Of a stretch of DNA of 64,000 nucleotides, positions 1 to 30,383 are shown one piece after another (position 1 is the stretch's first letter; every line of letters starts with the position of its first letter). Both the position numbers and the translations under genes were made by a program. The notes beneath the pieces were generated by a model. It worked only from the letters and a program-made list of their open reading frames with translations, was not told the DNA's origin and ran no database searches. The stretch is from a virus. Its lineage: Duplodnaviria; Heunggongvirae; Uroviricota; Caudoviricetes. The stretch is from IMG/VR virus record IMGVR_UViG_2671180890_000004. The stretch is one strand, 5' to 3'.

Positions 1-275
1 ACACGCTCCCCGTTAACCAGCCTCCCCGGTTCTTCGACGAATACATTCTGACACCGGAAAATAAAGCTGAGCACGAAGAGATCAAAGCGGCGTTGTTCCG
101 GGAAATCAGGAAGATTGCTGAAATGCAACTGGGGGGCGGGCTGGACAGAGTGATGGCGAGAGGAGAATGGGAGTCGCTGTTTGAAAGAGTTTCCCCGGAA
201 TTACTTCCCCTCGCACTGGCTATCGGGATTATGCAGACAGCGGATAAACCTCACTTACGTTCATTAAACACGTAA
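1..275 (+). CDS. 3' end of an unidentified gene (partial; reading frame open from window start)
   Basis: Frame is open from position 3 to the stop at 273-275; no recognisable motif. Product unknown. Confidence 0.3.
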   Translation, partial: TLPVNQPPRFFDEYILTPENKAEHEEIKAALFREIRKIAEMQLGGGLDRVMARGEWESLFERVSPELLPLALAIGIMQTADKPHLRSLNT

Positions 276-655
276 CGCATAATCCGGGATACGCATTCAG
301 CGATGACTGCATTTTCACCGGTTTTTACTGCATCCAGAAGTGACTCTTTAAATGGTGCGGGCCGGGGCTGCAGAAGGGTCGGCGTGGCATTGAGCAGACG
401 GAGCGTTTTTTCCGTGAGGACGACATCAGCCGCTCCCACAGCCAGCAACTGAGAGTAACGAATATAGCTGTTATCCCGAAGCCATATCAGCGTATCAATA
501 AAATACCGGCACTTTTTCTGGTCGTGATCAACCTGGTCCGGGATATCGAAAAAACCAGAATAAATCAAAACCTGAGGTGCCGGATGCGTGTTCAGTAATC
601 GGCAGAATATTTTGCCGGTGAGTGCATAAAAATCATCATTTAAGGAGTGCATCAT
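251..655 (-). CDS. hypothetical protein (134 aa)
   Basis: ORF only; its start codon overlaps the divergent start of the 654..869 ORF, so the true start or reality of this gene is doubtful. Confidence 0.25.
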   Translation of the reverse strand: MMHSLNDDFYALTGKIFCRLLNTHPAPQVLIYSGFFDIPDQVDHDQKKCRYFIDTLIWLRDNSYIRYSQLLAVGAADVVLTEKTLRLLNATPTLLQPRPAPFKESLLDAVKTGENAVIAECVSRIMRYVFNERK

Positions 656-869
656 GAATCCCCGATTAACGTTAACAGAACATCAGCGCCGTGCTGAAGC
701 AGTGAACAATGTTCTGGAAGATATTATCCGGTTACATCGCGGAGAACTGAGTGTCTGTCGTGCCGCTTTTCATTTTCAGGGAATACAAAAGCAGTTTGAT
801 ACTTCTGTTTTTGCAGAAGGTATTACTTATGCCCTGGACCGGATAAGGTCAGAAAATCGCCCCGGATAA
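654..869 (+). CDS. hypothetical protein (71 aa)
   Basis: ATG at 654 preceded by AAGGAG at 642-647; followed by an 11-bp perfect-stem hairpin at 926-956. Confidence 0.35.
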   Translation: MNPRLTLTEHQRRAEAVNNVLEDIIRLHRGELSVCRAAFHFQGIQKQFDTSVFAEGITYALDRIRSENRPG

Positions 870-1060
870 TCCCTAAACCACATTAACAGAAATCCCACTA
901 TCCCTGCCGCATCATGAAAGAACGACCAGCCCGGTGCTTCGGACCCACCGGGCTGGCCATCGTCCCACAGAAGTGGCTGTGAGCCGACCGAGGTTCAGTC
1001 AGTCTCGCGAGACCAGACTAGCCTGCCATATTTTTAATAATTGTAAAAGGCTTACAGATT

Positions 1061-1825
1061 ATGAAAATGAAGACATTACCCATCGTTCCATGGATTGGTG
1101 GCAAACGTCGCCTGGCAAAACACATCCTGCCGCTGTTTCCGGCGCATGAATGTTATGTGGAGCCGTTTTGTGGGGCAGCAGCGCTCTATTTTCTTAAGAC
1201 ACCCGGCAAGATCGAAGTCATCAATGATATCAACGGTGAACTGGTGAATCTGTACCGGGTGGTAAAGCATCACCTGGAAGAATTTGTCCGCCAGTTCAAA
1301 TGGGCGCTGGTCAGCCGTCAGATCTACAAATGGCTGCAGATCACCCCGGAAGAAACACTGACGGATATCCAGCGTGCGGCACGGTTCTACTACCTTCAGA
1401 AGCAGGCGTTTGGCGGCAAGGTGGCAGAGCACAGCTTCGGTACCTCCACCACATCCCCGCCACGCTTCAACCTGCTGCGTATTGAAGAAGAACTGTCAGC
1501 AGCACACCTGCGGCTTTCCAGAACAGTCATAGAACACATGGACTGGCAACAGTGCATTGAGCGTTATGATCGTCCGCACACACTGTTCTACTGCGACCCA
1601 CCGTACCTGGGTACGGAAGGCTATGGTGTGGATTTTCCTGAAGGGAACTACTCGCGGCTGGCAGAGCTGGCCCGGTGCATCAGAGGAAAAATGATAATTT
1701 CGGTGAACGATATCCCACAGATGCGCGAGGTGTTCACTGGACTGAACATACAGACAGTGAACATCAACTACAGTCTGGCGGGGAAATCTACGCCGCGCCG
1801 TGAACTGGTAATCTGCAACTTCTGA
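1061..1825 (+). CDS. DNA adenine methyltransferase, Dam/D12 class
   Basis: N-terminal PIVPWIGGKRRL AdoMet-binding motif and catalytic DPPY motif (FYCDPPYLG) in the order typical of Dam-family enzymes. Confidence 0.8.
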   Translation: MKMKTLPIVPWIGGKRRLAKHILPLFPAHECYVEPFCGAAALYFLKTPGKIEVINDINGELVNLYRVVKHHLEEFVRQFKWALVSRQIYKWLQITPEETLTDIQRAARFYYLQKQAFGGKVAEHSFGTSTTSPPRFNLLRIEEELSAAHLRLSRTVIEHMDWQQCIERYDRPHTLFYCDPPYLGTEGYGVDFPEGNYSRLAELARCIRGKMIISVNDIPQMREVFTGLNIQTVNINYSLAGKSTPRRELVICNF

Positions 1826-1855
1826 AACAAAACCGGAAAGCACAATGCTTTCCGG
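1824..1855 (-). terminator. rho-independent terminator downstream of the minus-strand repressor gene
   Basis: Stem CCGGAAAGC / GCTTTCCGG at 1833-1855; the U-tract is on the minus strand (A-run 1824-1832). Confidence 0.4.
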
Positions 1856-1941
1856 TAAACCAAACAACTTCCACTATGTCACTGGCGATGTTTTCTGAAA
1901 GCATCCAGATCAACCACCTGTCCTTTGTGTCCAGGTCAAAA

Positions 1942-2280
1942 TCAGCCTGCGAGTTTGCTTGGTTTGGGTTGAATGAAGACTTTGCCGACCTCAAGAATTG
2001 CCCTCCGTTGTTCGGGGCTCATTTCGTCGAATGCATCCATTAACTCTTTCTTTTCTTGTGACACATAAGGTGCAACAACAGGCTGACTCCGCACCCCAGT
2101 AACTACATACAAAATATCTACACCGATTTCTGATAGTGCAGATAACTGCACTGCAGTAGGAGAAGTGCGATCTTTTTCCCAATCAATGAAAGTTCTCTTT
2201 GCCACACCTATAGCATCAGCCAACCCTTGCTGTGTAAGAGATAGACGCTCTCTTTCTTCTTTAATACGTAACCCGATCAT
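1942..2280 (-). CDS. XRE-family HTH repressor (phage c-repressor analogue)
   Basis: HTH segment LSLTQQGLADAIGVAKRTFIDWEKD; divergent from the ner-like gene as in Mu. Start chosen at the internal Met (MIGLRIKEERERL). Confidence 0.55.
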   Translation of the reverse strand: MIGLRIKEERERLSLTQQGLADAIGVAKRTFIDWEKDRTSPTAVQLSALSEIGVDILYVVTGVRSQPVVAPYVSQEKKELMDAFDEMSPEQRRAILEVGKVFIQPKPSKLAG

Positions 2281-2304
2281 GTGAGTTTTTCTGCACTCTT
2301 TAAG

Positions 2305-2333
2305 TTGACTGGTGAGGTAATCTGCACCATAAT
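2305..2333 (+). promoter_or_regulatory. candidate sigma70 early promoter (TTGACT-17-CATAAT) driving ner/A/B
   Basis: TTGACT at 2305-2310, 17-nt spacer, CATAAT at 2328-2333, ~50 nt upstream of the ner start. Confidence 0.3.
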
Positions 2334-2380
2334 CTATCACACATAAGGCAAACATCATTGCATCAACAAAGGAGACAACG

Positions 2381-2569
2381 ATGACTGCAGAACAAGTCAA
2401 AGCTCTCTTCCGCCAGCGCGGGATCACTTTCACCCGCTGGGCAGAAGAAAACGGCTACAACCGCAATGAGGTATACCGCGTTCTCAATGGGCAGACCAAA
2501 GCCCGTTACGGTAAATCCCATGAAATCGCCGTGAAGTTGGGGCTGAAATCAACAGCTCAGGCAGCCTGA
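2381..2569 (+). CDS. ner: Ner-like DNA-binding protein
   Basis: 62-aa protein with Ner-family features, positioned between the repressor and the transposase; AGGAG RBS upstream. Confidence 0.65.
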   Translation: MTAEQVKALFRQRGITFTRWAEENGYNRNEVYRVLNGQTKARYGKSHEIAVKLGLKSTAQAA

Positions 2570-2615
2570 AGATTTTGAGTCTTTGTAAAAGGTTATCACA
2601 TATCGCAAAAGAGGT

Positions 2616-2930
2616 ATGCAGATGAGTAAGACGAATGTTTCAAGCTCCGGCAGTCGCATCCTCCGGGTACTCAAAGCGCTGCGCGGTCATGCCCTGAACG
2701 GTATTTCCAACGGTGAACTGGCGGCAGCACTGCACGAGTCACCGGCAAACATCAACCGGGCACTCAACACCCTCATTGAAGAAGGGTTGGCCCTGAAACT
2801 GGAAAACGGGCGTTTCGCGCCGGGCATCCAGTTACTGCAGATCGCTATGGCCCACAGTAACGAGATGGCACGTGCACAGGATCGCATTAACGAAATCAAC
2901 CAACGTGTCATTTCAGGTAGTCGTTTGTAA
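2616..2930 (+). CDS. winged-helix DNA-binding protein
   Basis: wHTH-like segment ISNGELAAALHESPANINRALNTLIEEGLA. Confidence 0.45.
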   Translation: MQMSKTNVSSSGSRILRVLKALRGHALNGISNGELAAALHESPANINRALNTLIEEGLALKLENGRFAPGIQLLQIAMAHSNEMARAQDRINEINQRVISGSRL

Positions 2931-2940
2931 GGAGTAATAA

Positions 2941-3852
2941 ATGGGACGCACCAAATCACCGATTAACACTGAACTGAACGCCGAGGTACCGCTGTCGGAT
3001 GATCTCAATGTCAGTCTGAACGCCATGACACAGCATCGTATGGAGATCATGCAGCAGTTTGGCGATGGTCAGCCCTATGAGCGTGATCGCATAGTTCATG
3101 AGGCTCGGTTTTATATGGCACAGAGCGCTGAGGCCATGCTGGAAGCAGGTAAACGACTTATTATTCTCAAAGAAAATGAACCTCACGGGGACTTTGTTGG
3201 AATTGTAGAAGAACAACTTGGTCTGCATGTGCGCGCAGCACAACGAATGATGAAAGCATCTTTGAAATACCTTTCACCAAAACTAGAGCCAAAAGCGACA
3301 ACGTTGTCGCTTTTAGGTAAGGCAAAATTATTTGAACTTGTTGCTGAAGATGACGACGACCTTGCTGAACTGGCCGACGGTGGCACAGTTGCCGGACTGA
3401 CGCTTGACGATGTTGATCGCATGTCAGTACGTGAATTGCGTCAGGCCCTGCGCGAAGCGCGCGAAACCAACGCAGCACAACAGCGCGTACTCGCCGACAA
3501 AAATGAAAAAATAGACTCACTCTCCACCAGACTGGAGAAGAAATCCCGTATTCAGCCACCTGAGCCTGATGAAGAGGTGAAGAAACTGCGGGCAGAAGTG
3601 ACCGCGTTAGCGGTTGAGGCGGAATCTGCCATCGCCGTTCGACTGTCCAGCGCTTTTGAGACGCTGTGCGCATATTGTGCTGAAAACATGATTGATACCC
3701 CCAGAGACTTCATGGCGGGCCTGGTCTGTCAACTGGAAAGCACAGCGCGTAGCCTGCGCTCCACATTTGACCTGCCGGACGAGCCAACAGGCAATGCAGC
3801 GCCTTCATGGCTGACTGAGCCGACGCCACAGATTAACGGGCTGGAGGCATAA
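2941..3852 (+). CDS. hypothetical phage protein (303 aa)
   Basis: ORF with AAGGAG RBS immediately upstream of the transposase gene; acidic, coiled-coil-rich. Confidence 0.5.
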   Translation: MGRTKSPINTELNAEVPLSDDLNVSLNAMTQHRMEIMQQFGDGQPYERDRIVHEARFYMAQSAEAMLEAGKRLIILKENEPHGDFVGIVEEQLGLHVRAAQRMMKASLKYLSPKLEPKATTLSLLGKAKLFELVAEDDDDLAELADGGTVAGLTLDDVDRMSVRELRQALREARETNAAQQRVLADKNEKIDSLSTRLEKKSRIQPPEPDEEVKKLRAEVTALAVEAESAIAVRLSSAFETLCAYCAENMIDTPRDFMAGLVCQLESTARSLRSTFDLPDEPTGNAAPSWLTEPTPQINGLEA

Positions 3853-3855
3853 CCA

Positions 3856-5625
3856 ATGAATGCTGCCCTGACTGAACGACTGGTTTATGTCGCCCGCGCG
3901 GCACGTGACGCGGGGCATGGTAAACGCGGCGCAGTATACGACGCTGCCTGTGCTGAACTTGGCATGTCCCGCGCCACTCTGCTGCGCAGGCTGAAGGAGG
4001 TATCTGTGACTGATAAACGCAAAAAACGCGCCGATGCCGGGCGCAGCGCCCTGACCCGCGACGAAGCCGCGCTGATATCTGCCACACTGCGTGAGGCCAC
4101 CCGCAAGAACGGTAAGCGTCTCTATTCCATCGCGGATGCAGTGGAAACCCTGCGGGCTAACGGCTTTATATCCGCAGGCAGAACAGATGAAACCACCGGT
4201 GAGTTTTTCCCGTTGTCCGAAGATGCCATCAGCCGAGCCCTGCGTAACTATGGCCTGCACCCGGAACAACTGGATGCCCCTGCGCCGCATACCGAAGTGG
4301 CCAGTCTGCATCCCAATCATGTCTGGCAGATTGACGCCTCACTCTGCACGCTTTACTACCTGAGCAATGGACATAAAGGGCTGCAGGTGATGGACAGCGC
4401 GAAGTTCTACAAGAACAAGCCCGCTAACCTTGCCCGTATCGCCAGTGACCGCGTGTGGAGTTACGAGATTACCGACCATGCCAGCGGCTGGATTTACGTT
4501 GAGTATGTGACGGGCGCGGAATCAGGTGAGAACCTGTGTTCTGTGCTTATCAACGCCATGCAGGAGCGTGGCGGCGCAGACGTGCTGCACGGTGTGCCGA
4601 AAATACTCTATCTCGACCCCGGCTCGGCAAACACCGCGGGTATGACGAAAAACATGTGCCGCTCACTGGGCATCGACCTGATAGCGCACAAGCCGCATAA
4701 CGCCCGCGCCACCGGACAGGTGGAAAAGGCGCGGGACATTATCGAACGCAAGCTGGAGCCGGGTCTGAAGTTCCGGCCGGTTCACAGTCTGGAAGAACTC
4801 AACGCGCTGGCCGCGAAATGGCGCAGCCACTTTAACGCCACGGCTGTTCACAGCCGCCACGGTAAAACCCGCACGGATATCTGGCTGAAGATTACTGCTG
4901 AGCAGCTGAAAAAAGCGCCTTCCGTTGAGGTATGTCGTGAACTGGCTGTGGCGGCACCAGAACTCCGCAAAGTCACGCCAAAACTTCGTGTCTCGTTCCG
5001 GGGCACTGAATTTGACGTATCAACGGTACCGGGCGTACTGGTTGGTGAAAAACTGATGATTACCCGTAACCCGTGGCGCAGCGATGTGGCACAGGTGGTT
5101 CTGACCGGTGAGGACGGCCACGAGACGTTCTTCCTGGTCGAAGAGGTCAGAAAGAACGAGTTTGGCTTTGCTGAAGGCGCGGCGGTATTTGGCGAAAGTT
5201 ACAAAGCCCTGCCGGAAACCCCGGCGCAGATGGCGGCAAAAGAAACCGAAGCGCTGGTCACCGGTACAGACAACGCCGCAGATGCAGCTGCCGCACGCAA
5301 GGCGAAGGCGCTGCCGTTCGGCGGGCGGCTTGACCCGTATAAACATATCGACGACACCACACTTCCGGCCTATATGCCGAAGCGTGGTCAGGCCTCTGAC
5401 GTACGCGGGCCGCGCACTGAACAACGTCCCATGACTTATGTGGAGGCCGCGAAAGCCCTGCGCGATAAGTTCAGCGCCAACGGCTTTACCTGGACGCCGG
5501 AACATTACCGCCAGTTAACGGCACAGTATCCGGACGGCGTACCGGAAGCCGCACTGGATGAAGTCATGGCCACGCTGACCACGCCGGCCCGCAGCAGCGT
5601 TATCAGTATTGTTAACGGCAACTGA
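3856..5625 (+). CDS. Mu-family DDE transposase (A protein)
   Basis: Catalytic-core signatures in MuA-like context and spacing: WQIDASL, YLDPGSANT, GQVEKARD. GGAGG RBS upstream. Confidence 0.85.
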   Translation: MNAALTERLVYVARAARDAGHGKRGAVYDAACAELGMSRATLLRRLKEVSVTDKRKKRADAGRSALTRDEAALISATLREATRKNGKRLYSIADAVETLRANGFISAGRTDETTGEFFPLSEDAISRALRNYGLHPEQLDAPAPHTEVASLHPNHVWQIDASLCTLYYLSNGHKGLQVMDSAKFYKNKPANLARIASDRVWSYEITDHASGWIYVEYVTGAESGENLCSVLINAMQERGGADVLHGVPKILYLDPGSANTAGMTKNMCRSLGIDLIAHKPHNARATGQVEKARDIIERKLEPGLKFRPVHSLEELNALAAKWRSHFNATAVHSRHGKTRTDIWLKITAEQLKKAPSVEVCRELAVAAPELRKVTPKLRVSFRGTEFDVSTVPGVLVGEKLMITRNPWRSDVAQVVLTGEDGHETFFLVEEVRKNEFGFAEGAAVFGESYKALPETPAQMAAKETEALVTGTDNAADAAAARKAKALPFGGRLDPYKHIDDTTLPAYMPKRGQASDVRGPRTEQRPMTYVEAAKALRDKFSANGFTWTPEHYRQLTAQYPDGVPEAALDEVMATLTTPARSSVISIVNGN

Positions 5626-5635
5626 GGAGGGAAAC

Positions 5636-6802
5636 ATGCTGGTACTGAAGCAGCAACTGAAAGAAGCCCGTATTCCACAGGCGGTGGTGGCGAGAGCTGT
5701 CGATGTTTCTGAGGCCACGCTGGCCCAGATTGTGAATCATAACGCGTGGCCCCGCACCAGCCCCGGAGAAGTGCGCCGGCGTCTTGCGTCCTGGCTGGAA
5801 AGTCAGGGGATTGATACAACGAAGAGTTTTGATGCTGTACAGGGCGCGGCCACGCCCCGTACAGCGGGTACCACAGATAAAACGAGCCTCAGTGAGGAAG
5901 AGAATATGTTACTCAAAAAACAGGTGTTATTTCCAGCAACCAAAAAAGCGTTTGGTCTTTTCCGTGACCCGTTCGCCGACGAAGCCATGCAGGGTTCTGA
6001 TGATGTGTTCACCACCCCGGATATTCGCTACGTGCGTGAGGCGTTGTACCAGACAGCCCGTCATGGTGGGTTTATGGCCGTCATCGGTGAGTCCGGTGCG
6101 GGTAAATCCACGCTGCGCCGCGACCTGACTGAACGTATCAACCGCGAGAATGCGCCGGTAATTGTTATCGAGCCATACATCATCGCTATGGAAGACAACG
6201 ATGTGAAAGGGAAAACCCTGAAGGCAGCAGCGATTGCCGAAGCCATTATCAGTACCATCGCACCACTGGAAAGCATCAGACGCAGTCAGGACGCCCGCTT
6301 TCGCCAGTTGCATCGCGTCCTGAAAGACAGCAGCCAGGCGGGGTTCAGCCACGTTCTGGTGATTGAGGAGGCCCACAGTCTGCCCATTCCGACACTGAAA
6401 CACCTCAAACGCTTTTTTGAGCTGGAGTCCGGTTTCAAAAAACTGCTGTCCATCGTGCTGATTGGCCAGCCGGAACTGGCGACAAAACTGTCTGAACGCA
6501 ATATGGAAGTCCGTGAAGTCGTTCAGCGCTGTGAGGTGGTCGAACTTCTGCCTCTGGACAATAACCTTGAAGAGTTTCTGACGTTCAAACTGCAACGGGC
6601 CGGTAAACAACTGACGGACATTATGGACGCCAGCGCAGTGGATGCCATACGTGCCCGCCTGAGCAATCCGGGAAGTCATCGTAAAAATATGGTCAGCCTG
6701 CTGTATCCGCTGGCCGTCAGTAACCTGGTAATAGCCGCCATGAATCTGGCCGCTGAAATCGGGGTTCCACAGGTCAACGCTGACGTTGTCAAAGGGGTTT
6801 AA
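5636..6802 (+). CDS. MuB-like transposition ATPase (AAA+)
   Basis: Walker A GESGAGKST and Walker B VLVIEEAH; located directly after the transposase. Confidence 0.8.
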   Translation: MLVLKQQLKEARIPQAVVARAVDVSEATLAQIVNHNAWPRTSPGEVRRRLASWLESQGIDTTKSFDAVQGAATPRTAGTTDKTSLSEEENMLLKKQVLFPATKKAFGLFRDPFADEAMQGSDDVFTTPDIRYVREALYQTARHGGFMAVIGESGAGKSTLRRDLTERINRENAPVIVIEPYIIAMEDNDVKGKTLKAAAIAEAIISTIAPLESIRRSQDARFRQLHRVLKDSSQAGFSHVLVIEEAHSLPIPTLKHLKRFFELESGFKKLLSIVLIGQPELATKLSERNMEVREVVQRCEVVELLPLDNNLEEFLTFKLQRAGKQLTDIMDASAVDAIRARLSNPGSHRKNMVSLLYPLAVSNLVIAAMNLAAEIGVPQVNADVVKGV

Positions 6803-6804
6803 TA

Positions 6805-7074
6805 ATGAAATCCACCACAGGTATCAACCAGCAAATCAGCAAAGTGCAGTCAGCCATTATGGCGCTTAAGGCGACGAACACGGATGTACAAAGCATCACC
6901 ATCAGGGGTAACAAACCTGTCATCCGCGTTTCCCGGAGTGCGCATTGCATGCGCATGCTTGAGCAGGGAAAGGCCTGTTATCTGTATACCGGTCATGACC
7001 ACAGGGGACATTTCCGTCAGGGCGTTTTCGAACTGCACGGCTGTCGCGTCGTGTGGCCGGAATCTTTGTGGTAA
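6805..7074 (+). CDS. hypothetical early-region protein
   Basis: ORF in the semi-essential region between B and gam. Confidence 0.45.
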   Translation: MKSTTGINQQISKVQSAIMALKATNTDVQSITIRGNKPVIRVSRSAHCMRMLEQGKACYLYTGHDHRGHFRQGVFELHGCRVVWPESLW

Positions 7075-7101
7075 TCAGCACAACAGGAGGAGTCATAAAA
7101 T

Positions 7102-7632
7102 ATGGCAAAAAGTACAAAAGGGGCAAAACGTATCAAAGCCGCAGCAGCACTCTGGGTGCCGGGGACACGCGAAGAGGTCATTGAGGGAATCAGACTGCTT
7201 GGTGACGCGCAACGTGAACTGGTCAGGGCTGAAACAGAAATGAATGACACCATTGGCGACATCACCGCACGTTATGCCCCGCTCACCGAGAGCCTGAAAA
7301 AACGCATGGCCGAACTGCAGTCCGGTATTCAGACATGGTGTGAGGCACACCGTGATGAACTGACCGGCAACGGGAAGGTGAAGTTCGCTAACCTCACCAC
7401 CGGCGAGGTGCAGTGGCGAAACCGTCCGCCGTCAGTCAGTATCCGTGGGGCGGATAATGTTATTGAATTACTGAGACGTCTGGGGCTTGAGCGCTTTATC
7501 CGTGTAAAGGAGGAAATAAATAAAGACGCCATCCTGAATGAAAAGGACGCCGTGAAAAATATTCCCGGTATTACCATAAAAAGTGATATTGAGGATTTTT
7601 CAATAATTCCTTTTGAGCAGAATGTGCAGTAA
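7102..7632 (+). CDS. gam: host-nuclease inhibitor Gam (Mu Gam family)
   Basis: Strong recalled similarity to Mu Gam, e.g. RPPSVSIRG...LGLERFIR...GITIKSDIEDFSIIPFEQ. Confidence 0.8.
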   Translation: MAKSTKGAKRIKAAAALWVPGTREEVIEGIRLLGDAQRELVRAETEMNDTIGDITARYAPLTESLKKRMAELQSGIQTWCEAHRDELTGNGKVKFANLTTGEVQWRNRPPSVSIRGADNVIELLRRLGLERFIRVKEEINKDAILNEKDAVKNIPGITIKSDIEDFSIIPFEQNVQ

Positions 7633-7728
7633 AAACAGCATATAAGCTATTTAAAACAGCCTTTTCTTTTTTATTCCGGCATCAGCGCCGTGGGCTTCTG
7701 CACGCCGGAAACAGAGGAGAATTAAATC

Positions 7729-7923
7729 ATGATATTTAAATGTATTCAGTGCGAGAGGGATATAACAGCCCTGCGTTTTCACAGCGCCATCGCCGTGATG
7801 TCCGGTAAGTACCACGTACCTGCAGTACGCGTCACCCTGGTCTGTCCGTACTGCAGTCAGCATTTTTCGGCAGACGTGCCCGTCATGGAATTCTCCCGCC
7901 CTGACAGGGAGGACTCGCAATGA
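7729..7923 (+). CDS. small Cys-rich (zinc-ribbon-like) protein
   Basis: CxxC...CPYC cysteine pairs in a 64-aa ORF. Confidence 0.4.
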   Translation: MIFKCIQCERDITALRFHSAIAVMSGKYHVPAVRVTLVCPYCSQHFSADVPVMEFSRPDREDSQ

Positions 7924-8192
7924 TTACCCCACAGGAAGCACGACAGCGCACCCGAACCCTTGTTGAACACTATGTCAACGAGTGTGAATGCCGCGACCTC
8001 ACCGATGTGAAGCACGTCCTGACGGCGCTAATCAGCATGACCGCTCAGGCCATTGTGGCGACCAACGGAAAGGCGGCTGCCCTGCAGGTACTGGTGAACA
8101 CACTCACCCACACGGCAGAGCACGATGTGCCGTACCGGATGGAAACCACTGCAGAAGGCGGCCTGAACATCACCGTCGACCGGAAACACTGA
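7920..8192 (+). CDS. hypothetical protein
   Basis: ORF with start overlapping the upstream stop (coupled). Confidence 0.4.
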   Translation: MITPQEARQRTRTLVEHYVNECECRDLTDVKHVLTALISMTAQAIVATNGKAAALQVLVNTLTHTAEHDVPYRMETTAEGGLNITVDRKH

Positions 8193-8201
8193 GGGCGCGG
8201 C

Positions 8202-8507
8202 ATGACACGGAACACCGAACTCACCCGCACCGCCCTCTACCGTCTGGCCCTGCAGCGTTTCGGGCCGGACGCACAGGCCCTGAAACTGACAGAAGAGGCC
8301 GCTGAACTGGCGGCCAGTGCCGCCCGCAACCTGAACGGACAGGGCAGCGAAAGTGACCTCGCGGCAGAGCTGGCAGACGTGGAAATCATGACAGAGCAGC
8401 TGCGCCTTCAGGGAATGGACCGGCTGATTGACTTCCACAAACAGAAAAAACTGGAACGCCTTGCCGCACGGCTGGGCGTCATGTACACCGGAGATACTGA
8501 ACAATGA
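8202..8507 (+). CDS. MazG-like nucleotide pyrophosphohydrolase domain protein
   Basis: EEAAELAA...ELADVEIM helix pair typical of MazG/NTP-PPase. Confidence 0.45.
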   Translation: MTRNTELTRTALYRLALQRFGPDAQALKLTEEAAELAASAARNLNGQGSESDLAAELADVEIMTEQLRLQGMDRLIDFHKQKKLERLAARLGVMYTGDTEQ

Positions 8508-9187
8508 CAGACCAGGATAAACACATTGAGAAACTGAAAAAGTTGCTGGCGCTGGCCGCATCCGGCAACCCTCACGAGGCCGCTCTGGCACTGCGCCGTG
8601 CCCGTAAACTGATGGATGTTCACGGCATCACACATTCCGACATCGCCATGAGTGATATTGATGAAACCATCAGTCACTACTGGCCGACAGGCAGCCTCCG
8701 TCCACCGCGCTACATGCTGGGCCTGATGAACATCATCCGCGAGGCATTTGGTGTTAACTCCATCATTCACCCCGGCACATATCCGGGTGTGGGGTTCTAC
8801 GGCAACCGGGAACGGGCTGCACTGGCTGCGTACACCTGGGAAGTGCTGGCCCGCCAGCTGAAAAAGGCGCGTCAGCAATATATCAGCGCACAGAACAAAA
8901 GAATAAAAACTGCCACCCGTACCAGCCGTGGTGACCAGTTTGCTGAAGGCTGGGTGCTGGCCGTTATCAGTGAAATACAGTCCTTCGCCCTGACCGATGA
9001 CGAACGTGAACTGATGCAGCAGTGGCTGGAACATAAATACCCGCAGACGCAAACCACCAGGGCGCGTAAACCGGGAAGAAGCCGCAATGGCGACGCCTCG
9101 CGCTATGCGGGGTTTCTTGAAGGGCAGAACGTCAGACTGCACCGCCCGGTCAGTGGGCAGGAACAACAGAAACTGGAGGCCAGATGA
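8504..9187 (+). CDS. DUF2786-like phage protein
   Basis: N-terminal KLKKLLALAASGNPHEAALALRRARKLM signature. Confidence 0.5.
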   Translation: MTDQDKHIEKLKKLLALAASGNPHEAALALRRARKLMDVHGITHSDIAMSDIDETISHYWPTGSLRPPRYMLGLMNIIREAFGVNSIIHPGTYPGVGFYGNRERAALAAYTWEVLARQLKKARQQYISAQNKRIKTATRTSRGDQFAEGWVLAVISEIQSFALTDDERELMQQWLEHKYPQTQTTRARKPGRSRNGDASRYAGFLEGQNVRLHRPVSGQEQQKLEAR

Positions 9188-9414
9188 TTACGCTATCAGG
9201 TAAAAGCCGGAAATTAAAAGCCTGCCGAATATCTGCCAGATACCTTTTTGCCCGCGCCTTTTTTAAGAACGTCAGGCCGGGGATCACAATTGGTGTTATT
9301 GCCGGACGCGAACAGGTTGAAAAATACATGTCAGGTGCATGGTGGAATAACGACCCTGTCATTGCTGCCCGTAATATTCATATCAGTTGGGGGGATATTC
9401 AGAATGACGGCTGA
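9184..9414 (+). CDS. hypothetical protein
   Basis: ORF with overlapping stop/start on both sides. Confidence 0.3.
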   Translation: MITLSGKSRKLKACRISARYLFARAFFKNVRPGITIGVIAGREQVEKYMSGAWWNNDPVIAARNIHISWGDIQNDG

Positions 9415-9619
9415 ATCTGTTGTATGTGCCCTGTTCTGGTATTGTTTTGTCGGTTGGTGTACTGCTGAACTGCACCGCCGTTCAGGGTTTTATTCACGTT
9501 ACAGTGGTGCTGGCTACTGGATTAGCTGGTCGGTGATGTTCCTGTGCTGGCCTGTGGCGCTTCCTTTATATGTCGATTATATCGGTGGCGCAGGTAAAAG
9601 GAGCAACGATGATGACTAA
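9404..9619 (+). CDS. small membrane protein
   Basis: Two hydrophobic helices (VVCALFWYCFVGW, WSVMFLCWPVALPLYV). Confidence 0.35.
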   Translation: MTAESVVCALFWYCFVGWCTAELHRRSGFYSRYSGAGYWISWSVMFLCWPVALPLYVDYIGGAGKRSNDDD

Positions 9620-10061
9620 ACAACGTCTTATCCAGCTCATTCATATTGCCCGTAATGAACTGGGTATGGATGAAGACACCTACCGCCAGATGTTACAGGG
9701 GCTGACCGGTAAAGCCTCAACCAAAGGAATGGATACCACACAACTAAACTGCGTGCTGGAATCCATGAAAAGGAAAGGCTTTCGCGTTAAGCCTGCCGGA
9801 AAAGCCAGCTCCGGTTTACCGCTGGATAACCATCCGCAGTCCAGGAAAATCCGTGCGCTATGGCTTGAAATGGCTGCTGCCGGCATTGTTCGTGACCGTT
9901 CAGAAAATGCATTAGCGCGGTGGATCAAGCGGGAAACGGGCATCAGCGCCCTGCGCTGGCTCAGTACTGAACAGGCAAGCAGTGTTATTGAGAAACTGAA
10001 GAAGTGGCAGCGCAGAGCTGCGGGAGTCAAACATGAGCGACCTGAATCAGTTTCGAAGTAA
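9609..10061 (+). CDS. gemA: GemA-like protein (Mu gp16 family)
   Basis: Size and position immediately upstream of mor; AAGGAG RBS. Confidence 0.55.
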   Translation: MMTKQRLIQLIHIARNELGMDEDTYRQMLQGLTGKASTKGMDTTQLNCVLESMKRKGFRVKPAGKASSGLPLDNHPQSRKIRALWLEMAAAGIVRDRSENALARWIKRETGISALRWLSTEQASSVIEKLKKWQRRAAGVKHERPESVSK

Positions 10062-10431
10062 AGGGCCGGAACTCCTGGTGGAGCTGGCACAGCATACCTC
10101 TGAGACCGTTCGCGAGATTATTGATATTGAGCCCGCAATTGCCGACCAGATTGGTCAGGCCGTCGCGAACCGAATGATGCAGGTCTGGGGCGGGCAAAAC
10201 GTTTATTTCCCGATGGGCATGGTATGGAAGGTCAGTCAGCGCGACCGGGAAATCTTCAGGGAGTTTAACGGACGCAACCACCACGAACTGGCCCGCAAGT
10301 TTGGTGTTTCGCTTCAGTGGGTCTACAGCGTGGTTAAGCGGGTCAGAAAAGAAGAACTGGATCGGATGCAGGGCAGGTTGTTTGATGAAGATCTGCCAGA
10401 GGAGACGAAAGACGTTAACAAATCCAGATAA
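10033..10431 (+). CDS. mor: Mor-family middle-operon transcription activator
   Basis: C-terminal HTH (HELARKFGVSLQWVYSVVKRVRK) and position after gemA. Confidence 0.7.
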   Translation: MSDLNQFRSKGPELLVELAQHTSETVREIIDIEPAIADQIGQAVANRMMQVWGGQNVYFPMGMVWKVSQRDREIFREFNGRNHHELARKFGVSLQWVYSVVKRVRKEELDRMQGRLFDEDLPEETKDVNKSR

Positions 10432-10476
10432 TTCCTGCTTGTTAAAGTCCTTTCAAAAATCTCCTTATTGTATAAA

Positions 10477-10507
10477 AGCACGGTAGACCCCTTACCGTGC
10501 TTTTTTT
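10477..10507 (+). terminator. rho-independent terminator after mor
   Basis: Stem GCACGGTA / TACCGTGC followed by T7. Confidence 0.6.
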
Positions 10508-10545
10508 ATGCTCTCTCTTTAGTATTCAGGATGCAGGGAGAAAAT

Positions 10546-11178
10546 ATGTTTGACGTTTCGTTGTTAAATCTGCCATGGGCAACACTGGTGACCCTGACCA
10601 GTGGCTATATTGGGTATTTTATTGCGAATGTGGGACTGAAGGATCACCACAAGCCCATTGAGGTGACTTTTTCTTCGCTGATTTTTGGCCTGACAGCAAT
10701 GATGGCTTACCAGGCTGTTATGTGGGCAGGTCTGAATGCCTGGCTGGCAACACCACCAGCACTTCTGTGTGCCCTTACATGCGGTGCGTGGTGGCGCAGG
10801 TACGGTCGCAAATGGATGTACAGATTACTGTGGAATAATGATATTTCATGGTCTGACGATACCAGCTCAGCATGGCAGGCAATGTTTGATCAAACAGGCT
10901 TCAGCGTTACCGAGGTCAGAGTGATTCTTCGCGATGGTTCCGGTATGATGTCACGGCTGCCAGGGAACTTTGAAGAGTGGCCTAACGGTCCGTTTACCCT
11001 GGGGAATAAAGGCGATATGGTTCTTTACGTCACGCACAGCAGCCCTTCAGGCAGTAACGAATGGGAAGAGTATAAAGGCGTGGTTGATAAGTACTGGGGA
11101 GCTCTGGCAACCTATATTCCAGCAGATCAGATTGCCAGAGTGGAGATCAGGCGCGTTCGTGCAACGAACGATGAATGA
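10546..11178 (+). CDS. membrane protein with C-terminal soluble domain
   Basis: ATG at 10546 with GGGAGA RBS; three or four N-terminal hydrophobic helices. Last gene before the gabP junction. Confidence 0.45.
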   Translation: MFDVSLLNLPWATLVTLTSGYIGYFIANVGLKDHHKPIEVTFSSLIFGLTAMMAYQAVMWAGLNAWLATPPALLCALTCGAWWRRYGRKWMYRLLWNNDISWSDDTSSAWQAMFDQTGFSVTEVRVILRDGSGMMSRLPGNFEEWPNGPFTLGNKGDMVLYVTHSSPSGSNEWEEYKGVVDKYWGALATYIPADQIARVEIRRVRATNDE

Positions 11179-11526
11179 TGTTTATTTTTTCCCTGGGGCA
11201 GGGGCTGCCGGCATAGTGGTTTTATTGGCAGAGGAAGACGATTCTCCTTTTCTACCGGAATCGCGCTCGAACGTCACGATGTGCTTGCTTTTGGGCTTTT
11301 CTGAGTAATCCAGGCTATCATGCTTATTGTTTTGAGTAGTCATTGGAATCATCCTTTTTGTTGCGGGTCATGTTTCAGCAAACTCGATTCTAAGTTGCCA
11401 GGAAGGATGATTTCAATGCCCGACTTATCTATCGTATAGCGGAAAAGAATTTCAGTTCTGTTCACCAGAACCCATGTTAACCCACTCCAATTCGTTATTT
11501 ATCTCACGGATCCCCCTTCATTTATC

Positions 11527-11913
11527 TCATGTCTGATCAGGAATGCCTGGAACCCATGAGTGCAGGATCATGGCGGCGATGTTGGCTTCAAGTGGGATAA
11601 CCAGTACCCAAAACCACCAGTACAACCAGCCGATGGTATAGCCCGCCCAGCGGCCAATGGCTTTATCGGCATAGGTGGAAAACGAACCGGTATCGGGCGT
11701 GGCAACCGCCATTTCCGCCAACATCCGCATAATCATAACCACCAGTAATCCGGCGAACAGATAGGCCAGTAATACCGCCGGGCCCGCTTCGGCGATGGCG
11801 ACGCTGGAACCGACAAACAGACTTGCGCCGATAACACCGGCAATAGACAACATGGTGACGTGGCGTGACTTCAGCCCGCCGCCTAACTCATGTGGTTGCG
11901 ATGATTGCCCCAT
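11527..11913 (-). pseudogene. gabP: gabP, truncated GABA permease (N-terminal ~125 codons only)
   Basis: Near-identical to the E. coli GabP N-terminus up to ...HSWVPGIP, then diverges (DQT-stop); the remaining ~340 codons are absent from the window. Confidence 0.85.
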
Positions 11914-12149
11914 CCTGAATCCTCTCGAAAGTGTGTCACTTGGGAGAGCGCCCCGACATTTCCCGCGTCGGGTCACGCGTTTAATTGTTATTGGTTCTTT
12001 TTGCCGGAGAGCGGCTCCGCCTTATCCGGCCGACATAGATTTATTCCTGTTCACGTACAGATTGTCGGATGCGGCGTAAACGCCTTATCCGACCTGGATT
12101 CTCGTAGGCCGGACAAGCCGCAAAGCGTCGCCTCCGGCATGGTGCGGTG

Positions 12150-16202: not shown

Positions 16203-17279
<1,077 letters not shown>

Positions 17280-17708
17280 TTACATATTGTTTTCTTATTG
17301 TGATCAAAAACAGCAAATTAATAACAAGTAATGTGAGGGATAAGAATTGGGTTGAAAGGAAATGAATAATTAAAACAATATATTAAGTGTGCTTATACTC
17401 TTTTTCGAACTGGTGGCATTTGTTTAAATGCTATTTAAACTGCTTTTTCAGAGTTCAACTTACTGAGTTCCGTGTCGACTAATGTGAGTAAGATCAATCG
17501 CATCCAACCTATGTTACTTGATGGCATCGATAACAATATTAATGAACATACAGATTCCGGGAAGGCTGGCTATGGGGGCAAATTATTCTCTTTCTGGAAA
17601 CGGGTAAATAACAGTGACCATTTGTCGAGAAGCTGATACTGAGCTGAGGGATACTGTATATGTCTGGACTGTAATTGGATGAATTCTATTCAGGGCGGGT
17701 CAGGACCA

Positions 17709-17735
17709 ATAAAAAAGCCCGCATCAGCGGGCTTT
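17709..17735 (-). terminator. rho-independent terminator (minus strand)
   Basis: Stem AAGCCCGC / GCGGGCTT; the U-tract is on the minus strand (A-run 17710-17716). Confidence 0.4.
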
Positions 17736-17863
17736 AATGTCATAGGGAGTCGCGACTCCGTTGCGTATCCTTTTTTGTCTCCTCACCGTCTGGTCGGTGT
17801 CCTGCTGAGACTTATAACTTCCTGTTTTTGTTGGTGTAGTCCTTACACCGTCCAATCATTATT

Positions 17864-17890
17864 TGGTGGAGCTGGCGGGAGTTGAACCCG
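17864..17890 (-). other. ssrA: 27-bp copy of the 3' end of ssrA (tmRNA): prophage attachment-site core
   Basis: TGGTGGAGCTGGCGGGAGTTGAACCCG is the reverse complement of the ssrA 3' terminus; sequence beyond it is not ssrA, so this is an att repeat, not a gene. Confidence 0.7.
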
Positions 17891-18321
17891 TGTCCATAGT
17901 TATGTAATTCATTGAATTTAAATAGCCAAATATTGTTGATTTTACACGCGGCTCTTTTGCGGAACTTTTTCTGTCCTGTTACTGTCTTACTATTTATTTT
18001 AAAATAGTTTCATTTGGAATTAATGGTTTGTGGTTGCAGTTTCGGAGATAGATAGCATTTTTTGCTAAAAAATATTTTTATAAAAAATGTGTGTAAAAAT
18101 GATGTTATGCACAGATTTATACACAGAGGCTTTGTAATAAACCAGATTATTTTGGATAAGTTTGTTTTTTTGTGATTTGTCAACAATATTATTGACTCTT
18201 GTTACTAAAGTGAGTGTTTTCTAAGGTGGCCAGAAGTTGTCCCTTCATGTAATCTTATTAGCCATAAAGAACAAAAAATAATTCAACATCATTACCAACT
18301 ATTTGTAAGATAAGGTTTTTA

Positions 18322-19137
18322 ATGTTGCAGCCAGCAAAAAAAGCATCAGTTATTAGCGCGCGGCTAACTAAATACCTCAAAGATGGAGTGAGGATTGATG
18401 ACTTTAGCTTTAGAAGGATGTTACGTGAGATTGAAGCACTTAGAGATCCTGTCTCTGAGGACTATCTTTTAGCGTTGGTCTATGGTGCACATGGTCAAGT
18501 GAATGAGGCGATAGGCTTCTTTGAGCGTTCCTTGCAGGTATGCCATAATGAGGTTGTTGCAAAGAATTTTCTTGTTTTCTTGTCAGATTACGGTACGTTG
18601 AAGAAAAGCTTTGAAACAAGCATTAAGCTTGCTGAAAGCTTCATATCCCCGTTTATTTATCTTCAAGCTTATGAAAACTCCCTCTTTATGGGGAAGATGG
18701 CGTTGGCGGAGAAGTATTTCCAGTCATACTCTAAATTGTTCGGAGATAAGGAGCCTGAAAAAATGGACAACCATCTTGATGAAGTTGTTTCCCAGGTCGA
18801 ATCCTTTAAGCAACGTGCCGATCTTTCTGGTTTAGAATATGAACTTATTTTCAATAATGTAGCCAATGTCATGGATTCTCAGAAGGTTCATCTTTCGGGA
18901 ATGCGTTTTTATAATATTTCGGAAGAGAAAGTGAATGCGATTGTATTCATGACAAAGTCTTCTGATGCTGAACAAATCGCTGATATGAATATTGAGCTTG
19001 CTTTTTCAATGGCTGAGCACGATTGTTTAGTCGGTAAAGATTTTGCTGTTTGGTTTGAATGTAAAGACACACATATTGAGCAGAATGCTATCTCCGAATT
19101 AGGTCTGATTACCCGGAGGGTTGCACATGCCGGTTAA
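18322..19137 (+). CDS. hypothetical cargo protein (271 aa), first gene of att-int cassette
   Basis: AT-rich ORF between the att core and int; no motif recognised. Confidence 0.5.
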   Translation: MLQPAKKASVISARLTKYLKDGVRIDDFSFRRMLREIEALRDPVSEDYLLALVYGAHGQVNEAIGFFERSLQVCHNEVVAKNFLVFLSDYGTLKKSFETSIKLAESFISPFIYLQAYENSLFMGKMALAEKYFQSYSKLFGDKEPEKMDNHLDEVVSQVESFKQRADLSGLEYELIFNNVANVMDSQKVHLSGMRFYNISEEKVNAIVFMTKSSDAEQIADMNIELAFSMAEHDCLVGKDFAVWFECKDTHIEQNAISELGLITRRVAHAG

Positions 19138-19510
19138 TAGTCAAGATTTTCTCGGTTTTGCAAAAGACTGTCATCAACGTAATGACGAAATCGGCTATCG
19201 AAATGCTATAGCAAGATCCTACTATGGCGCTTACCATCATGTCTTGCCTTGTATGGTAAACGGGCCGAAAGACAGTCATCAGGGGCTAATCAATTATTTG
19301 CAGGGCGATGCTTCAAGAGGAAGTGAAGTATATGAAGCTAGATATCTAAAAGGGATTAGTTTTATCCTGAGTCAACTTAAAGCTCAGAGGATTGTTGCAG
19401 ACTATCGACTTGATCAATCGGTCACTTCTAAACAGTCTGAAGTTGCGATTCTAACAACTGAGAGGCTCTTTGCTAAGTGTACGGAAATGCTTAAATCGAG
19501 AGCCTCCTAA
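19127..19510 (+). CDS. hypothetical cargo protein (~128 aa), coupled to upstream gene
   Basis: ATG at 19127 with GGAGGG RBS, overlapping the upstream stop by 11 nt; contains an R-x6-H segment (RSYYGAYHH) that could be HEPN-like (speculative). Confidence 0.45.
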   Translation: MPVNSQDFLGFAKDCHQRNDEIGYRNAIARSYYGAYHHVLPCMVNGPKDSHQGLINYLQGDASRGSEVYEARYLKGISFILSQLKAQRIVADYRLDQSVTSKQSEVAILTTERLFAKCTEMLKSRAS

Positions 19511-19517
19511 TTGATAA

Positions 19518-19539
19518 AGCCACTTAAGTGGCTTTTTTT
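19518..19539. terminator. bidirectional terminator between cargo operon and int
   Basis: Stem AGCCACTT / AAGTGGCT followed by T7. Confidence 0.5.
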
Positions 19540-20696
19540 GTGATATTGCTGGTCGTATTACCGTCATATTCCTTTAAATATGAACCATAATGACGAAATA
19601 ACATTTCCGGCCCTTTATGCCCCATTTGAGCTGCAAGCCAAAACAGGTTTGCTCCCCGGCTGATATGGCGGGTGGCGAATGTATGCCTAGTTTGATATGG
19701 ATTTCTGTAACGAATACCTGCTTTTCGCAATGTTGGCACCCATGCTTTTTTCCTGATTGCATCAGCACTTGCCCAGGGCTTATTGGTCTTTGGATCTTCA
19801 AAGACAGTAGCATCCTTCATGAATGTAAATGGCTTCTGATTTATCAGCGCCAACATTGCTTCTTCAGTCAGTTCAACTTTACGGGTACCGGCTTTTGTCT
19901 TTGTCCCTTTGATAACACCGACAACACTTGCGCTCTGGACATGGGCAGTTTTTCCAACAAAGTCGATATCACGCCATCGAAGGGCACATAATTCAGAACT
20001 ACGCAGGCCTGTATGTATAGCGAACCGGAACAGATTTTCCCATTGTTTTTTTCCGGCTGCTGCTAGTAATGCATCAACTTCTGCTGGTGATAGCGGATCA
20101 ACCACGTAGCTGCTTTCTGCTTCTGACTTATCACTTTGGTAGCGCGAAGCAGTTACCAACGATACGGGGTTAATTTGAAGTACCCCATCGGTTACGGCTT
20201 CATCAAGTGCTGACCGCAGGAAAGATAACTGGTTGCGAATTGTTTTTAAGGTCGTTTTCTGGCTTTGAATCCACGCTTTCAGGATTGCTGGTGTTAATTC
20301 ACTTGCAGGGCAAATGTGGAGTGAGGCTAACGCACTACGGCATTTTTTATAACCACCAATCGTAGAGGGTGAAAGTTTTCTTGTTTCGCAGATTTCAAGA
20401 TATTCGTCCAGGTACATCTTTACCGTTTTGCCTGCAGCAGCATTACCAAAAATTTTCAAACGAGCAGAACGGGGAAAATATTCTGCATAAATGAATGTTC
20501 CCCTTTCGATCTTATTATGGATTTCGCCGAGTGTACGCTCGGCGTATTTAATGTTCTTTGGTGTTACTTCCAGATTGGAAAGCGGCTCACGACATCTAAC
20601 TCCTTTGTAGGTGAAAGTTATATTGATCGTTTCTCCCTGGCGGTGTTTCCTGATTGTTACGCCGCGCGGTAGTTTGAGCAGTTTTGTCTGGCCCAT
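19524..20696 (-). CDS. int: tyrosine recombinase (phage integrase)
   Basis: C-terminal catalytic region with conserved R (LRSSELCALRWRD), HxxR (HTFATRH) and tyrosine near LFRHYGSY; adjacent to the att core. Confidence 0.85.
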   Translation of the reverse strand: MGQTKLLKLPRGVTIRKHRQGETINITFTYKGVRCREPLSNLEVTPKNIKYAERTLGEIHNKIERGTFIYAEYFPRSARLKIFGNAAAGKTVKMYLDEYLEICETRKLSPSTIGGYKKCRSALASLHICPASELTPAILKAWIQSQKTTLKTIRNQLSFLRSALDEAVTDGVLQINPVSLVTASRYQSDKSEAESSYVVDPLSPAEVDALLAAAGKKQWENLFRFAIHTGLRSSELCALRWRDIDFVGKTAHVQSASVVGVIKGTKTKAGTRKVELTEEAMLALINQKPFTFMKDATVFEDPKTNKPWASADAIRKKAWVPTLRKAGIRYRNPYQTRHTFATRHISRGANLFWLAAQMGHKGPEMLFRHYGSYLKEYDGNTTSNITKKAT

Positions 20697-20902
20697 TTTG
20701 CAACCTCACTAAGATCAATCCACCTCTCCTTAACGCCTTCAACCTTTAAAACCTGAACACCTTCACGCCAAACACCGCGCTGTACACGTTTGTTTATTGC
20801 TTCAGGAGTTTCGCCAGTTTCTTTGCAATAAGTTGAGATAGGAACACAATCGAGGTTCAGCATACGTTTCTCCATTATCCCGTCTGCACACGGGAGCAAC
20901 AT
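20657..20902 (-). CDS. xis: excisionase-like DNA-binding protein
   Basis: Small basic protein overlapping the int start; likely true start at MEKRM (20875) with AGGAG-like RBS. Confidence 0.6.
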   Translation of the reverse strand: MLLPCADGIMEKRMLNLDCVPISTYCKETGETPEAINKRVQRGVWREGVQVLKVEGVKERWIDLSEVAKWARQNCSNYRAA

Positions 20903-20904
20903 TA

Positions 20905-21795: not shown

Positions 21796-21879
21796 TTTGT
21801 AATATAACCTATATCTATATGTTAATAAATTACTTATATGTTCTTTTATGGCAGAGTTTGAATTCGTACGTGCTGATTT

Positions 21880-22431: not shown

Positions 22432-22531
22432 CGCGCTGAATTCTGGTAAAAGAAAGCCCTCACCATCCGGCGATTATTGAGTCAATTACGTTTCCATAAA
22501 TGCCCCCGCAGGGGCATTTGCAGTAATGAAA

Positions 22532-23356: not shown

Positions 23357-23421
23357 AATAAGTCCTCACTATATAAAGATATTCAGTGATGAGATAAATA
23401 ATCAGTTAATTAAGAACGATA

Positions 23422-24681: not shown

Positions 24682-24817
24682 GAGTGCCTAGTGGCACAAC
24701 ATGACTCAACGAATCATCCTGGACTTCATATGCCCCAGGCGGCTACTTCGTGGGCGTCCTGCCTGTTCGTTGTTTCGCTTAGGTACATTATGTATCTCAA
24801 GGGTACATTGTCAAGTA

Positions 24818-24840
24818 TAAAAAAACCTGCCGAAGCAGGT
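24818..24840 (-). terminator. rho-independent terminator after the repressor gene
   Basis: Stem ACCTGC / GCAGGT with the U-tract on the minus strand. Confidence 0.5.
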
Positions 24841-24853
24841 TCATAAACATTGA

Positions 24854-25528: not shown

Positions 25529-25543
25529 AACGAAATTAAAACC

Positions 25544-30382: not shown

Positions 30383-30383
30383 G

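Follow-up and report, generated by a model that had tools for sequence, protein, structure and literature searches.

The first 12 kb of the DNA considered here, a 64,000-nucleotide stretch (hereafter the window) of the virus record IMGVR_UViG_2671180890_000004, raise the question of what kind of element ends inside gabP, the gene of the gamma-aminobutyrate (GABA) permease. An earlier note made from the sequence alone had recognized, at 1826-11536, the early region of a Mu-like transposable phage with the genes repressor, ner, A, B, gam, gemA and mor in Mu order, followed by one membrane-protein gene and the gabP junction. The gene order is borne out by Pfam, PHROGs and NCBIfam searches together with the open reading frame (ORF) listing, and after mor there is indeed the membrane-protein gene, accompanied by a 53-amino-acid (aa) ORF, and then a sharp junction, with no late-gene relatives downstream of the early region within the window. 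Two alternatives had been left standing: either the locus is a truncated remnant, or the element is organized differently from Mu and its remaining genes lie upstream of the window. Taken together, these alternatives are partly supported by the present analysis. With high confidence, window 1..11539 is the arm that bears the regulatory and transposition genes of a BcepMu-like (Bcepmuvirus) transposable myovirus prophage, 38.3 kb long, which transposed into gabP, and the genes missing from the window are seen upstream, on the opposite strand, in identical copies of the element.

The right end of the element and its junction with gabP

Megablast searches against a set of 5,426 complete Escherichia coli genomes showed that copies of window 1 to ~11539, up to 100% identical, lie at many chromosomal positions, and that from 11540 on the window is ordinary gabP in nearly every genome. 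Because the matches to other genomes stop at 11539 and the gabP match starts at 11540, the right end of the element is placed at 11539 and not at 11536, as had been proposed. It reads ...TGTCTGATCA/GGAATG (the slash marks the junction), with the terminal CA at 11538-11539, and the exact junction is ...CATTTATCTCATGTCTGATCA/GGAATGCC at 11539/11540. The last 10 bp of the prophage are preceded by two exact copies of ATTTATCTCA, which are candidate transposase-binding sites (Table 1). The earlier note had proposed to look for such a terminus and repeats at a second candidate end too, around 1860-1940, and there they were not found. The whole spacer at ~1826-1940 was considered as an element end and rejected, as it contains a terminator-like hairpin and no end motif. 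No end motif was found elsewhere in the arm (1..11539) besides the right end, and the prophage sequence runs unbroken to window position 1.

The gabP gene is the last of the csiD(glaH)-lhgO-gabDTP operon and is split after ~codon 125. The frame of its 5' remnant enters the prophage end, leading to a chimeric GabP product which ends in ...HSWVPGIPDQT followed by a stop codon. The window does not encode the C-terminal gabP fragment, whose first start codon lies 59 codons beyond the junction. Since gabP is split, the strain should be without GABA permease. The genes gabT, gabD, lhgO and glaH come after the remnant, to about 17000. Transcripts reading through from the gab operon would run into the prophage end, in antisense orientation to the last rightward gene of the element, termed here the cargo gene.

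The same gabP::prophage junction is absent from the 5,426 complete E. coli genomes and gave no match in genome_contigs, while neither the right junction nor the predicted left junction (...CCAGATGGGAATG/TGATGCGCCGCGCGATAAATG) has a match in viral_contigs. On the left side of the gabP copy, the expected arrangement is ...GGAATG/TGATGCGCCGCGCGATAAATG..., adjoining the rest of gabP.

Full copies of the element in other E. coli genomes

The arm ending beside mor is carried by ~117 of the 5,426 genomes, as 98-100% identical copies in up to three places per genome. The insertions interrupt at least 15 different genes, including sfaA, upaG, phnP, clbG, ptsP, gudD, xylR and, in the window copy, gabP, together with several ABC genes and one gene each for a glycosyltransferase, a helicase, a DUF905 protein, a DUF4153 protein and an alkaline-phosphatase-family protein. 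In the full copies found in NZ_CP069978, CP147551, CP071073 and CP196265, the arm continues upstream on the opposite strand, to a second end. This late arm starts with holin, SLT transglycosylase and spanin-like genes, followed by the small and large terminase, the portal (DUF935), Mu F- and G-like morphogenesis and head genes, and then by P2-like sheath, tube, tape-measure and baseplate genes. Its far part consists of tail fibre genes, a 2.1-kb invertible segment, a Gin-like recombinase and the second end. The element, measured end to end in two copies only, is 38,340 bp long in CP147551 and 38,341 bp in CP071073. Window 1..11539 corresponds to prophage positions 26,802-38,340, with two base differences from the CP147551 copy, which places the gene of a Dam-like methylase at 1061..1825 inside the element. 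The earlier note had raised this possibility, and the gene is internal to the element in every full copy.

The two ends, read inward, are TGATGCGCCGCGCGATAAATG... and TGATCAGACATGAGATAAATG..., so that the termini are TGATG... and ...GATCA. In each of them G(A/C)GATAAAT occurs twice, at positions 12-20 and 35-43; the two subterminal repeats, of 10 bp, are 23 bp apart. Direct target duplications of 6 bp were found in all five insertions for which both junctions were available: GGAAGT in sfaA, CCAATA in upaG, GCGAGG in phnP, CCGCGC in clbG/clbH and GCCAGC in ptsP. By comparison with these, GGAATG at 11540..11545 is the predicted right-hand duplication copy of the gabP insertion. In phage Mu, the target-site duplication is 5 bp, and this was also the length anticipated for normal ends by the earlier note. 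The comparison with related genomes that it proposed thus shows late genes contiguous with the early region and normal ends in identical copies elsewhere, with a duplication of 6 bp and not 5 bp. A second copy of the early module, for which it had also proposed a check, was not found in the window.

The whole 38.3-kb element contains a single Mor/C-family gene, which is the only match of both Mu Mor and Mu C. The lack of a separate C gene is normal for a prophage of the BcepMu-like type.

The 2.1-kb tail-fibre segment beside the Gin-like recombinase (prophage 718-2851) is inverted between two otherwise 99.9% identical copies. The combination of many sites, near-identical copies and both segment orientations is the signature of a recently and repeatedly transposing phage.

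Relationship to BcepMu and to other transposable elements

BcepMu-type transposable prophages have been described since 2004. Homologs of BcepMu (NC_005882, Bcepmuvirus) gp1, 2, 8, 9, 10, 12, 16 and 17 are collinear with the window genes, in the same order and orientation, at identities ranging from 33% to 68% (Table 1). The transposase is 68% identical to BcepMu gp9 over 98% of its length and 56% identical to B3 TnpA, and its candidate catalytic residues D160, D254 and E290 (DD-36-E spacing) are invariant in six phage transposases, down to 36% identity. The layout is also shared. In both elements, the early operon points towards the near end, the late genes lie on the other strand and a gp16/gp17 switch stands at the interface of the two arms. 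For the E. coli element, the early arm and control region are seen in the window, and the late arm, as compared with BcepMu, in the 98-100% identical copies. In BcepMu, genes 1-13 occupy the bottom strand and 17-52 the top strand, with the control region at genes 16/17 (PMC2771037; PMC2628397). The ends of BcepMu follow the same plan (TGAAG..., with G(A/C)GATA(A/T)(A/T)T at positions 12-20 and 35-43), and P2-like tail genes are common to BcepMu and the full E. coli copies. Described features of BcepMu are a Tn552/IS1604-type transposase unrelated to MuA, a terminal CA, P2-like tails and relatives in other bacteria (PMC2771037; PMC2628397). Its duplication length is not stated in the open literature searched.

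Several features set the E. coli element apart from BcepMu. It possesses Gam, the Dam methylase and a DUF2786 protein, which BcepMu lacks, and, between mor and the end, an additional cargo module of two genes. A Gin-like recombinase and an invertible tail-fibre segment are present as well, while BcepMu has an acyltransferase and no inversion system. Closer relatives have been deposited as phages. Window 9-10391 has a 95.5% identical counterpart in Escherichia phage PhiKM, a Bcepmuvirus entry which is without the cargo gene and has a repressor 33% identical, and Klebsiella phage KP12 and Escherichia phage Phi06_2974 B give ~86% identical matches. Among BcepMu relatives, phiE255 has also been named. 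In the Pseudomonas phages B3, JBD25 and relatives, the transposase gene, whose product is 56% identical over the full length, likewise lies close to the left end on the bottom strand. These phages stand further away than BcepMu in all shared proteins that were checked, and according to the literature they are siphoviruses (PMC2771037).

The likeness to Mu (NC_000929, Muvirus) is of another kind. Both are transposable temperate myoviruses with TG...CA ends and homologous Gam, GemA and Mor proteins, and they share the functional order repressor, small regulator, transposase, ATPase, Gam, GemA and Mor, as well as, in the full E. coli copies, a Gin-type invertible tail-fibre segment. In contrast, no tblastn similarity was found to Mu c, Ner, A or B, the transposase and ATPase having no match in the first 12 kb of Mu at E 1e-3. 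The products called A and B in the earlier note are functional analogs of MuA and MuB and not detectable homologs. No Mu-specific Pfam domains were found, the transposase has no MuA chain among its PDB matches at E up to 1, and the PDB matches of transposase and ATPase were limited to weak, generic ones to retroviral integrases or P-loop proteins. The Mu late genes are collinear with the early operon on one strand, whereas those of the E. coli element are divergent; Mu has Mor plus C, and the E. coli element one Mor/C-family activator. The 6-bp duplication and the P2-like tail module are further differences from Mu.

Gene content of the arm and proposed mechanism

The features of the window up to the gabP remnant are collected in Table 1. 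The 5'-truncated gene at the window edge (1..275) is 100% identical to NZ_CP069978.1 (locus L002, from 19001), where the full gene spans 18532..19275. The Ner/Cro-like first early gene is the one at 2381..2569, the product of which scores 97 bits against TIGR04111 (BcepMu_gp16; cutoff 34) in NCBIfam and belongs to phrog_925; the gene at 2616..2930 is a second, winged-helix-turn-helix regulator.

Table 1. Features of window positions 1 to 11913. Identities are those of the encoded proteins to BcepMu and to Mu (first 12 kb). HTH, helix-turn-helix; TM, transmembrane.
Position	Strand	Feature	Basis or remark	Identity to BcepMu	Identity to Mu
1..275	+	3' part of 247-aa hypothetical prophage gene	truncated by window edge		
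251..655	-	prophage gene, no assigned function	phrog_2266; annotated in identical copies		
654..869	+	prophage gene, no assigned function	phrog_4490		
1061..1825	+	D12-class DNA adenine methyltransferase (Dam-like)	PF02086, E 6e-29; PADLOC MTase_II		
1832..1856		terminator-like hairpin	between convergent Dam and repressor genes; not an element end		
1942..2358	-	cI/Cro-type HTH_3 repressor	PF01381	gp17, 36%	none detected
2305..2333	+	candidate early promoter, TTGACT-17-CATAAT	upstream of first early gene; consensus scan, 10/12 positions; predicted only		
2381..2569	+	first early gene, 62-aa HTH, Ner/Cro analog	BcepMu gp16 family	gp16, 46%	none detected
2616..2930	+	winged-HTH regulator (IclR-type HTH)	homologous to BcepMu gp12	gp12, 33%	none detected
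2941..3852	+	DUF3102 protein, no assigned function	directly precedes transposase	gp10, 44%	none detected
3856..5625	+	DDE (rve) transposase, BcepMu/B3 type	PF00665; phrog_310	gp9, 68%	none detected
5636..6802	+	AAA+ (AAA_22, ExeA-like) transposition ATPase, MuB analog	PF13401, E 4e-20; phrog_296 'DNA transposition protein'; immediately 3' of transposase gene	gp8, 59%	none detected
6805..7074	+	small early gene, no assigned function	phrog_2041		
7102..7632	+	Gam host-nuclease inhibitor	PF07352, E 8e-41	no homolog	62%
7729..9619	+	run of several small early genes	annotated in identical copies		
8504..9187	+	DUF2786/DUF7168 protein	within small early-gene run		
9612..10061	+	GemA	PF06252, E 1e-40	gp2, 45%	36%
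10033..10431	+	Mor/C-family transcription activator	PF08765, E 1e-43	gp1, 56%	31%
10474..10504	+	terminator-like hairpin, 13-bp stem then T run	directly after mor		
10546..11178	+	cargo gene, 210 aa	three N-terminal predicted TM helices and small Sm-like beta domain		
11182..11343	-	convergent 53-aa hydrophilic ORF	promoter-like site 11416..11387		
11497-11506, 11520-11529	+	two exact ATTTATCTCA repeats, 23 bp apart	candidate transposase-binding sites, Mor-side end		
11530..11539	+	prophage terminal 10 bp, ending ...GATCA	5'-TG...CA-3' termini		
11540..11545		GGAATG, predicted right-hand copy of 6-bp target-site duplication	from 5/5 full copies		
11540..11913	-	gabP 5' remnant, codons 1 to ~125	frame enters prophage end, stops at 11527		

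A mechanism can be proposed for this arm by analogy with Mu and BcepMu, notably as regards promoter use, the binding of the repeats and the Mor step. The cI-type repressor and the divergent gp16-family Cro/Ner-like gene would form the lysogeny switch, in which the repressor keeps the divergent early promoter off. Upon derepression, the gp16-family protein and the early operon would be transcribed rightwards, towards the near element end, yielding the DDE transposase and its AAA+ partner for target handling, as well as Gam, GemA and, lastly, the single Mor/C-type activator. The transposase with its AAA+ partner would then bind the subterminal repeat pairs of the two TG...CA ends and catalyze nearly random insertion with a 6-bp staggered cut, while Gam would shield free DNA ends. 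Finally, Mor would likely activate the divergent lysis, head and P2-like tail genes, which the opposite strand encodes beyond the repressor and outside the window. For the BcepMu group, it has been reported that replication proceeds by transposition and that host-flanked DNA is packaged, the virion DNA being bordered by random host sequence (PMC2771037).

Regarding the switch itself, the repressor start is uncertain, with 2358 (Logan gene call), 2400 (RefSeq) and 2433 as candidates. The RefSeq start at 2400 overlaps the start of the divergent gp16-family gene at 2381, and the candidate early promoter at 2305-2333 falls within the repressor 5' coding region. Either the repressor really begins further inside the annotated gene, or this is an unusually compact switch.

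The repressor also differs among close relatives. In PhiKM it shows the low identity already mentioned, and in MS 21-1 (NZ_CP146670) a shorter HTH gene of 357 nt is present. As the flanks are 97-100% identical while the repressor differs, immunity-module replacement giving heteroimmune variants is suggested. In addition, GATC sites occur at 2.25 per kb in the prophage arm (1-11539) versus 3.55 per kb in 11540-64000, despite the phage-encoded Dam-like methylase.

Alternative readings and completeness of the gabP copy

Could the locus nevertheless be a truncated or defective remnant, in which the early arm is intact, the late region has been deleted or disrupted upstream and a transposase and ATPase pair is left with only one usable end? 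The window itself is without late genes, related copies do decay through an insertion sequence (IS21), frameshifts or a split tape-measure gene, and a 145-bp solo relic of a related end is present on ~105 ColV-type plasmids. However, the prophage is unbroken to window position 1 and up to there 100% identical to full copies, no insertion sequence or rearrangement is found inside the arm, and, by its length, a contig with the same junction reaches the tape-measure repeats, no less than 16.3 kb beyond. A remnant is thus improbable, and the corresponding alternative of the earlier note is not supported. That the prophage belongs to the true Mu family (Muvirus), its late region having been split off by inversion or another rearrangement, would agree with the Gam, GemA and Mor identities to Mu (62%, 36% and 31%, respectively) and with a functional order like that of the Mu early region. 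This reading is already contradicted, and we give it almost no credence, since the tblastn and PDB searches detected neither Mu c, Ner, A and B relatives nor a MuA chain, BcepMu and all full E. coli copies natively have the two-arm layout, the duplications measure 6 bp instead of 5 bp and the tail genes are P2-like.

Tn552/IS1604-type transposons, and Tn5053-like elements with a DDE transposase and an AAA+ partner, offer another comparison. By BcepMu annotation and literature, the former belong to the same rve lineage as the E. coli transposase, and they likewise have an AAA-type partner, here the AAA_22 ATPase, and TG...CA termini. Unlike the E. coli element, they are non-viral. A Tn552- or Tn5053-like transposon which merely carries some phage-derived genes is highly implausible, as in identical copies the same two ends enclose a complete set of lysis, head and tail genes, a 95.5% identical genome has been deposited as a phage, and the BcepMu group replicates by transposition and packages host-flanked DNA (PMC2771037).

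A BcepMu-like transposable prophage therefore remains the preferred reading, and several points have to be set against it. The 26.8 kb upstream, the left junction and the left duplication copy of the gabP insertion all lie outside the window. By count, the window shows no enrichment of the ATTTATCTCA motif (4 found versus 3.7 expected); the significance of the motif comes from its position and from its conservation between the two ends and with BcepMu. Moreover, the relative in CP146670 is damaged by IS21 in a baseplate gene and by a DUF3102 frameshift, and the tape-measure gene is split in CP196265. As some relatives are damaged, completeness of the gabP copy is likely but not certain.

On this last point, evidence comes from the Logan contig SRR8871715_144 (28,354 bp), which was retrieved with the chimeric GabP remnant and encodes the same gabP-prophage chimera. 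In the part read, its first 10.6 kb, it is identical to window 1527..12091, and by its length it would reach 16.3 kb upstream of window position 1, to ~prophage 10,540. It would thus stop inside the tape-measure repeats, a place at which a break in a short-read assembly would be expected. This reach, from which its late-gene content is deduced, supports an intact late arm, and the gabP copy is probably a complete, ordinary mobile prophage. The repeats themselves, ~260 bp long and in tandem within the tape-measure gene (prophage 9,781-10,577), coincide with the PhiKM sequencing gap as well as with the Logan contig end.

The cargo pair at the prophage tip

Between the strong terminator-like hairpin after mor and the right end lie the cargo gene and the convergent small ORF. 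The cargo protein is a distant relative of DUF6338 proteins (phrog_12870), and some of its homologs score for DUF6338. No Pfam, NCBIfam or PADLOC match and no defense-system match was obtained for the pair. A BcepMu-like prophage of Serratia marcescens contains a 57%-identical cargo homolog and a homologous 48-aa convergent ORF in the same slot after Mor, and in Bradyrhizobium a cargo homolog with a similar small convergent ORF is found outside any Mu-like context. The pair is absent from PhiKM and KP12. Tentatively, and with little confidence, we consider it an accessory module with its own transcription, conserved in enterobacterial BcepMu-like phages, which might be an undescribed superinfection-exclusion or membrane-acting lysogenic-conversion system.

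Solo relics of a related end and the neighboring prophage

The relic mentioned above corresponds to the Mor-side end of a related element (89.7% identity to window 11386-11530) and is present on ~105 large ColV-type plasmids, mostly from avian and human E. coli, and on ~40 chromosomes, in unannotated DNA. In the one copy examined, on plasmid p1 of NZ_CP059908.1 (locus L009, 4001-4144), it is flanked by an IS3 remnant and a LysR gene; both ATTTATCTCA repeats are retained, but the terminal 9 bp differ. It is a true solo remnant of the BcepMu-like phage type.

On the other side of the gab genes, the G+C content falls to 33-44% after glaH (window ~17000-30000 and beyond). Comparison with NZ_CP142953 identifies a lambdoid prophage there, with a site-specific integrase, yfdPQR, a cI/Cro-like pair, RusA and KilA-N. 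This prophage is unrelated to the transposable phage.

Implications

The biology of BcepMu-type prophages being already known, the finding is real but ordinary. Roughly 2% of complete E. coli genomes carry the element, with identities reaching 100%, and in this respect little is new. For annotators, it follows that late genes should be expected beyond the repressor, together with a 6-bp duplication, and that the Mu template (collinear late genes, a C gene and 5 bp) is unsuitable. In the source strain, the insertion has knocked out gabP and, with it, the GABA permease. The element is evidently mobile in extraintestinal E. coli lineages, clbG, sfaA, upaG and ptsP being among the genes it interrupts in other strains, and it is therefore a real source of insertional variation.

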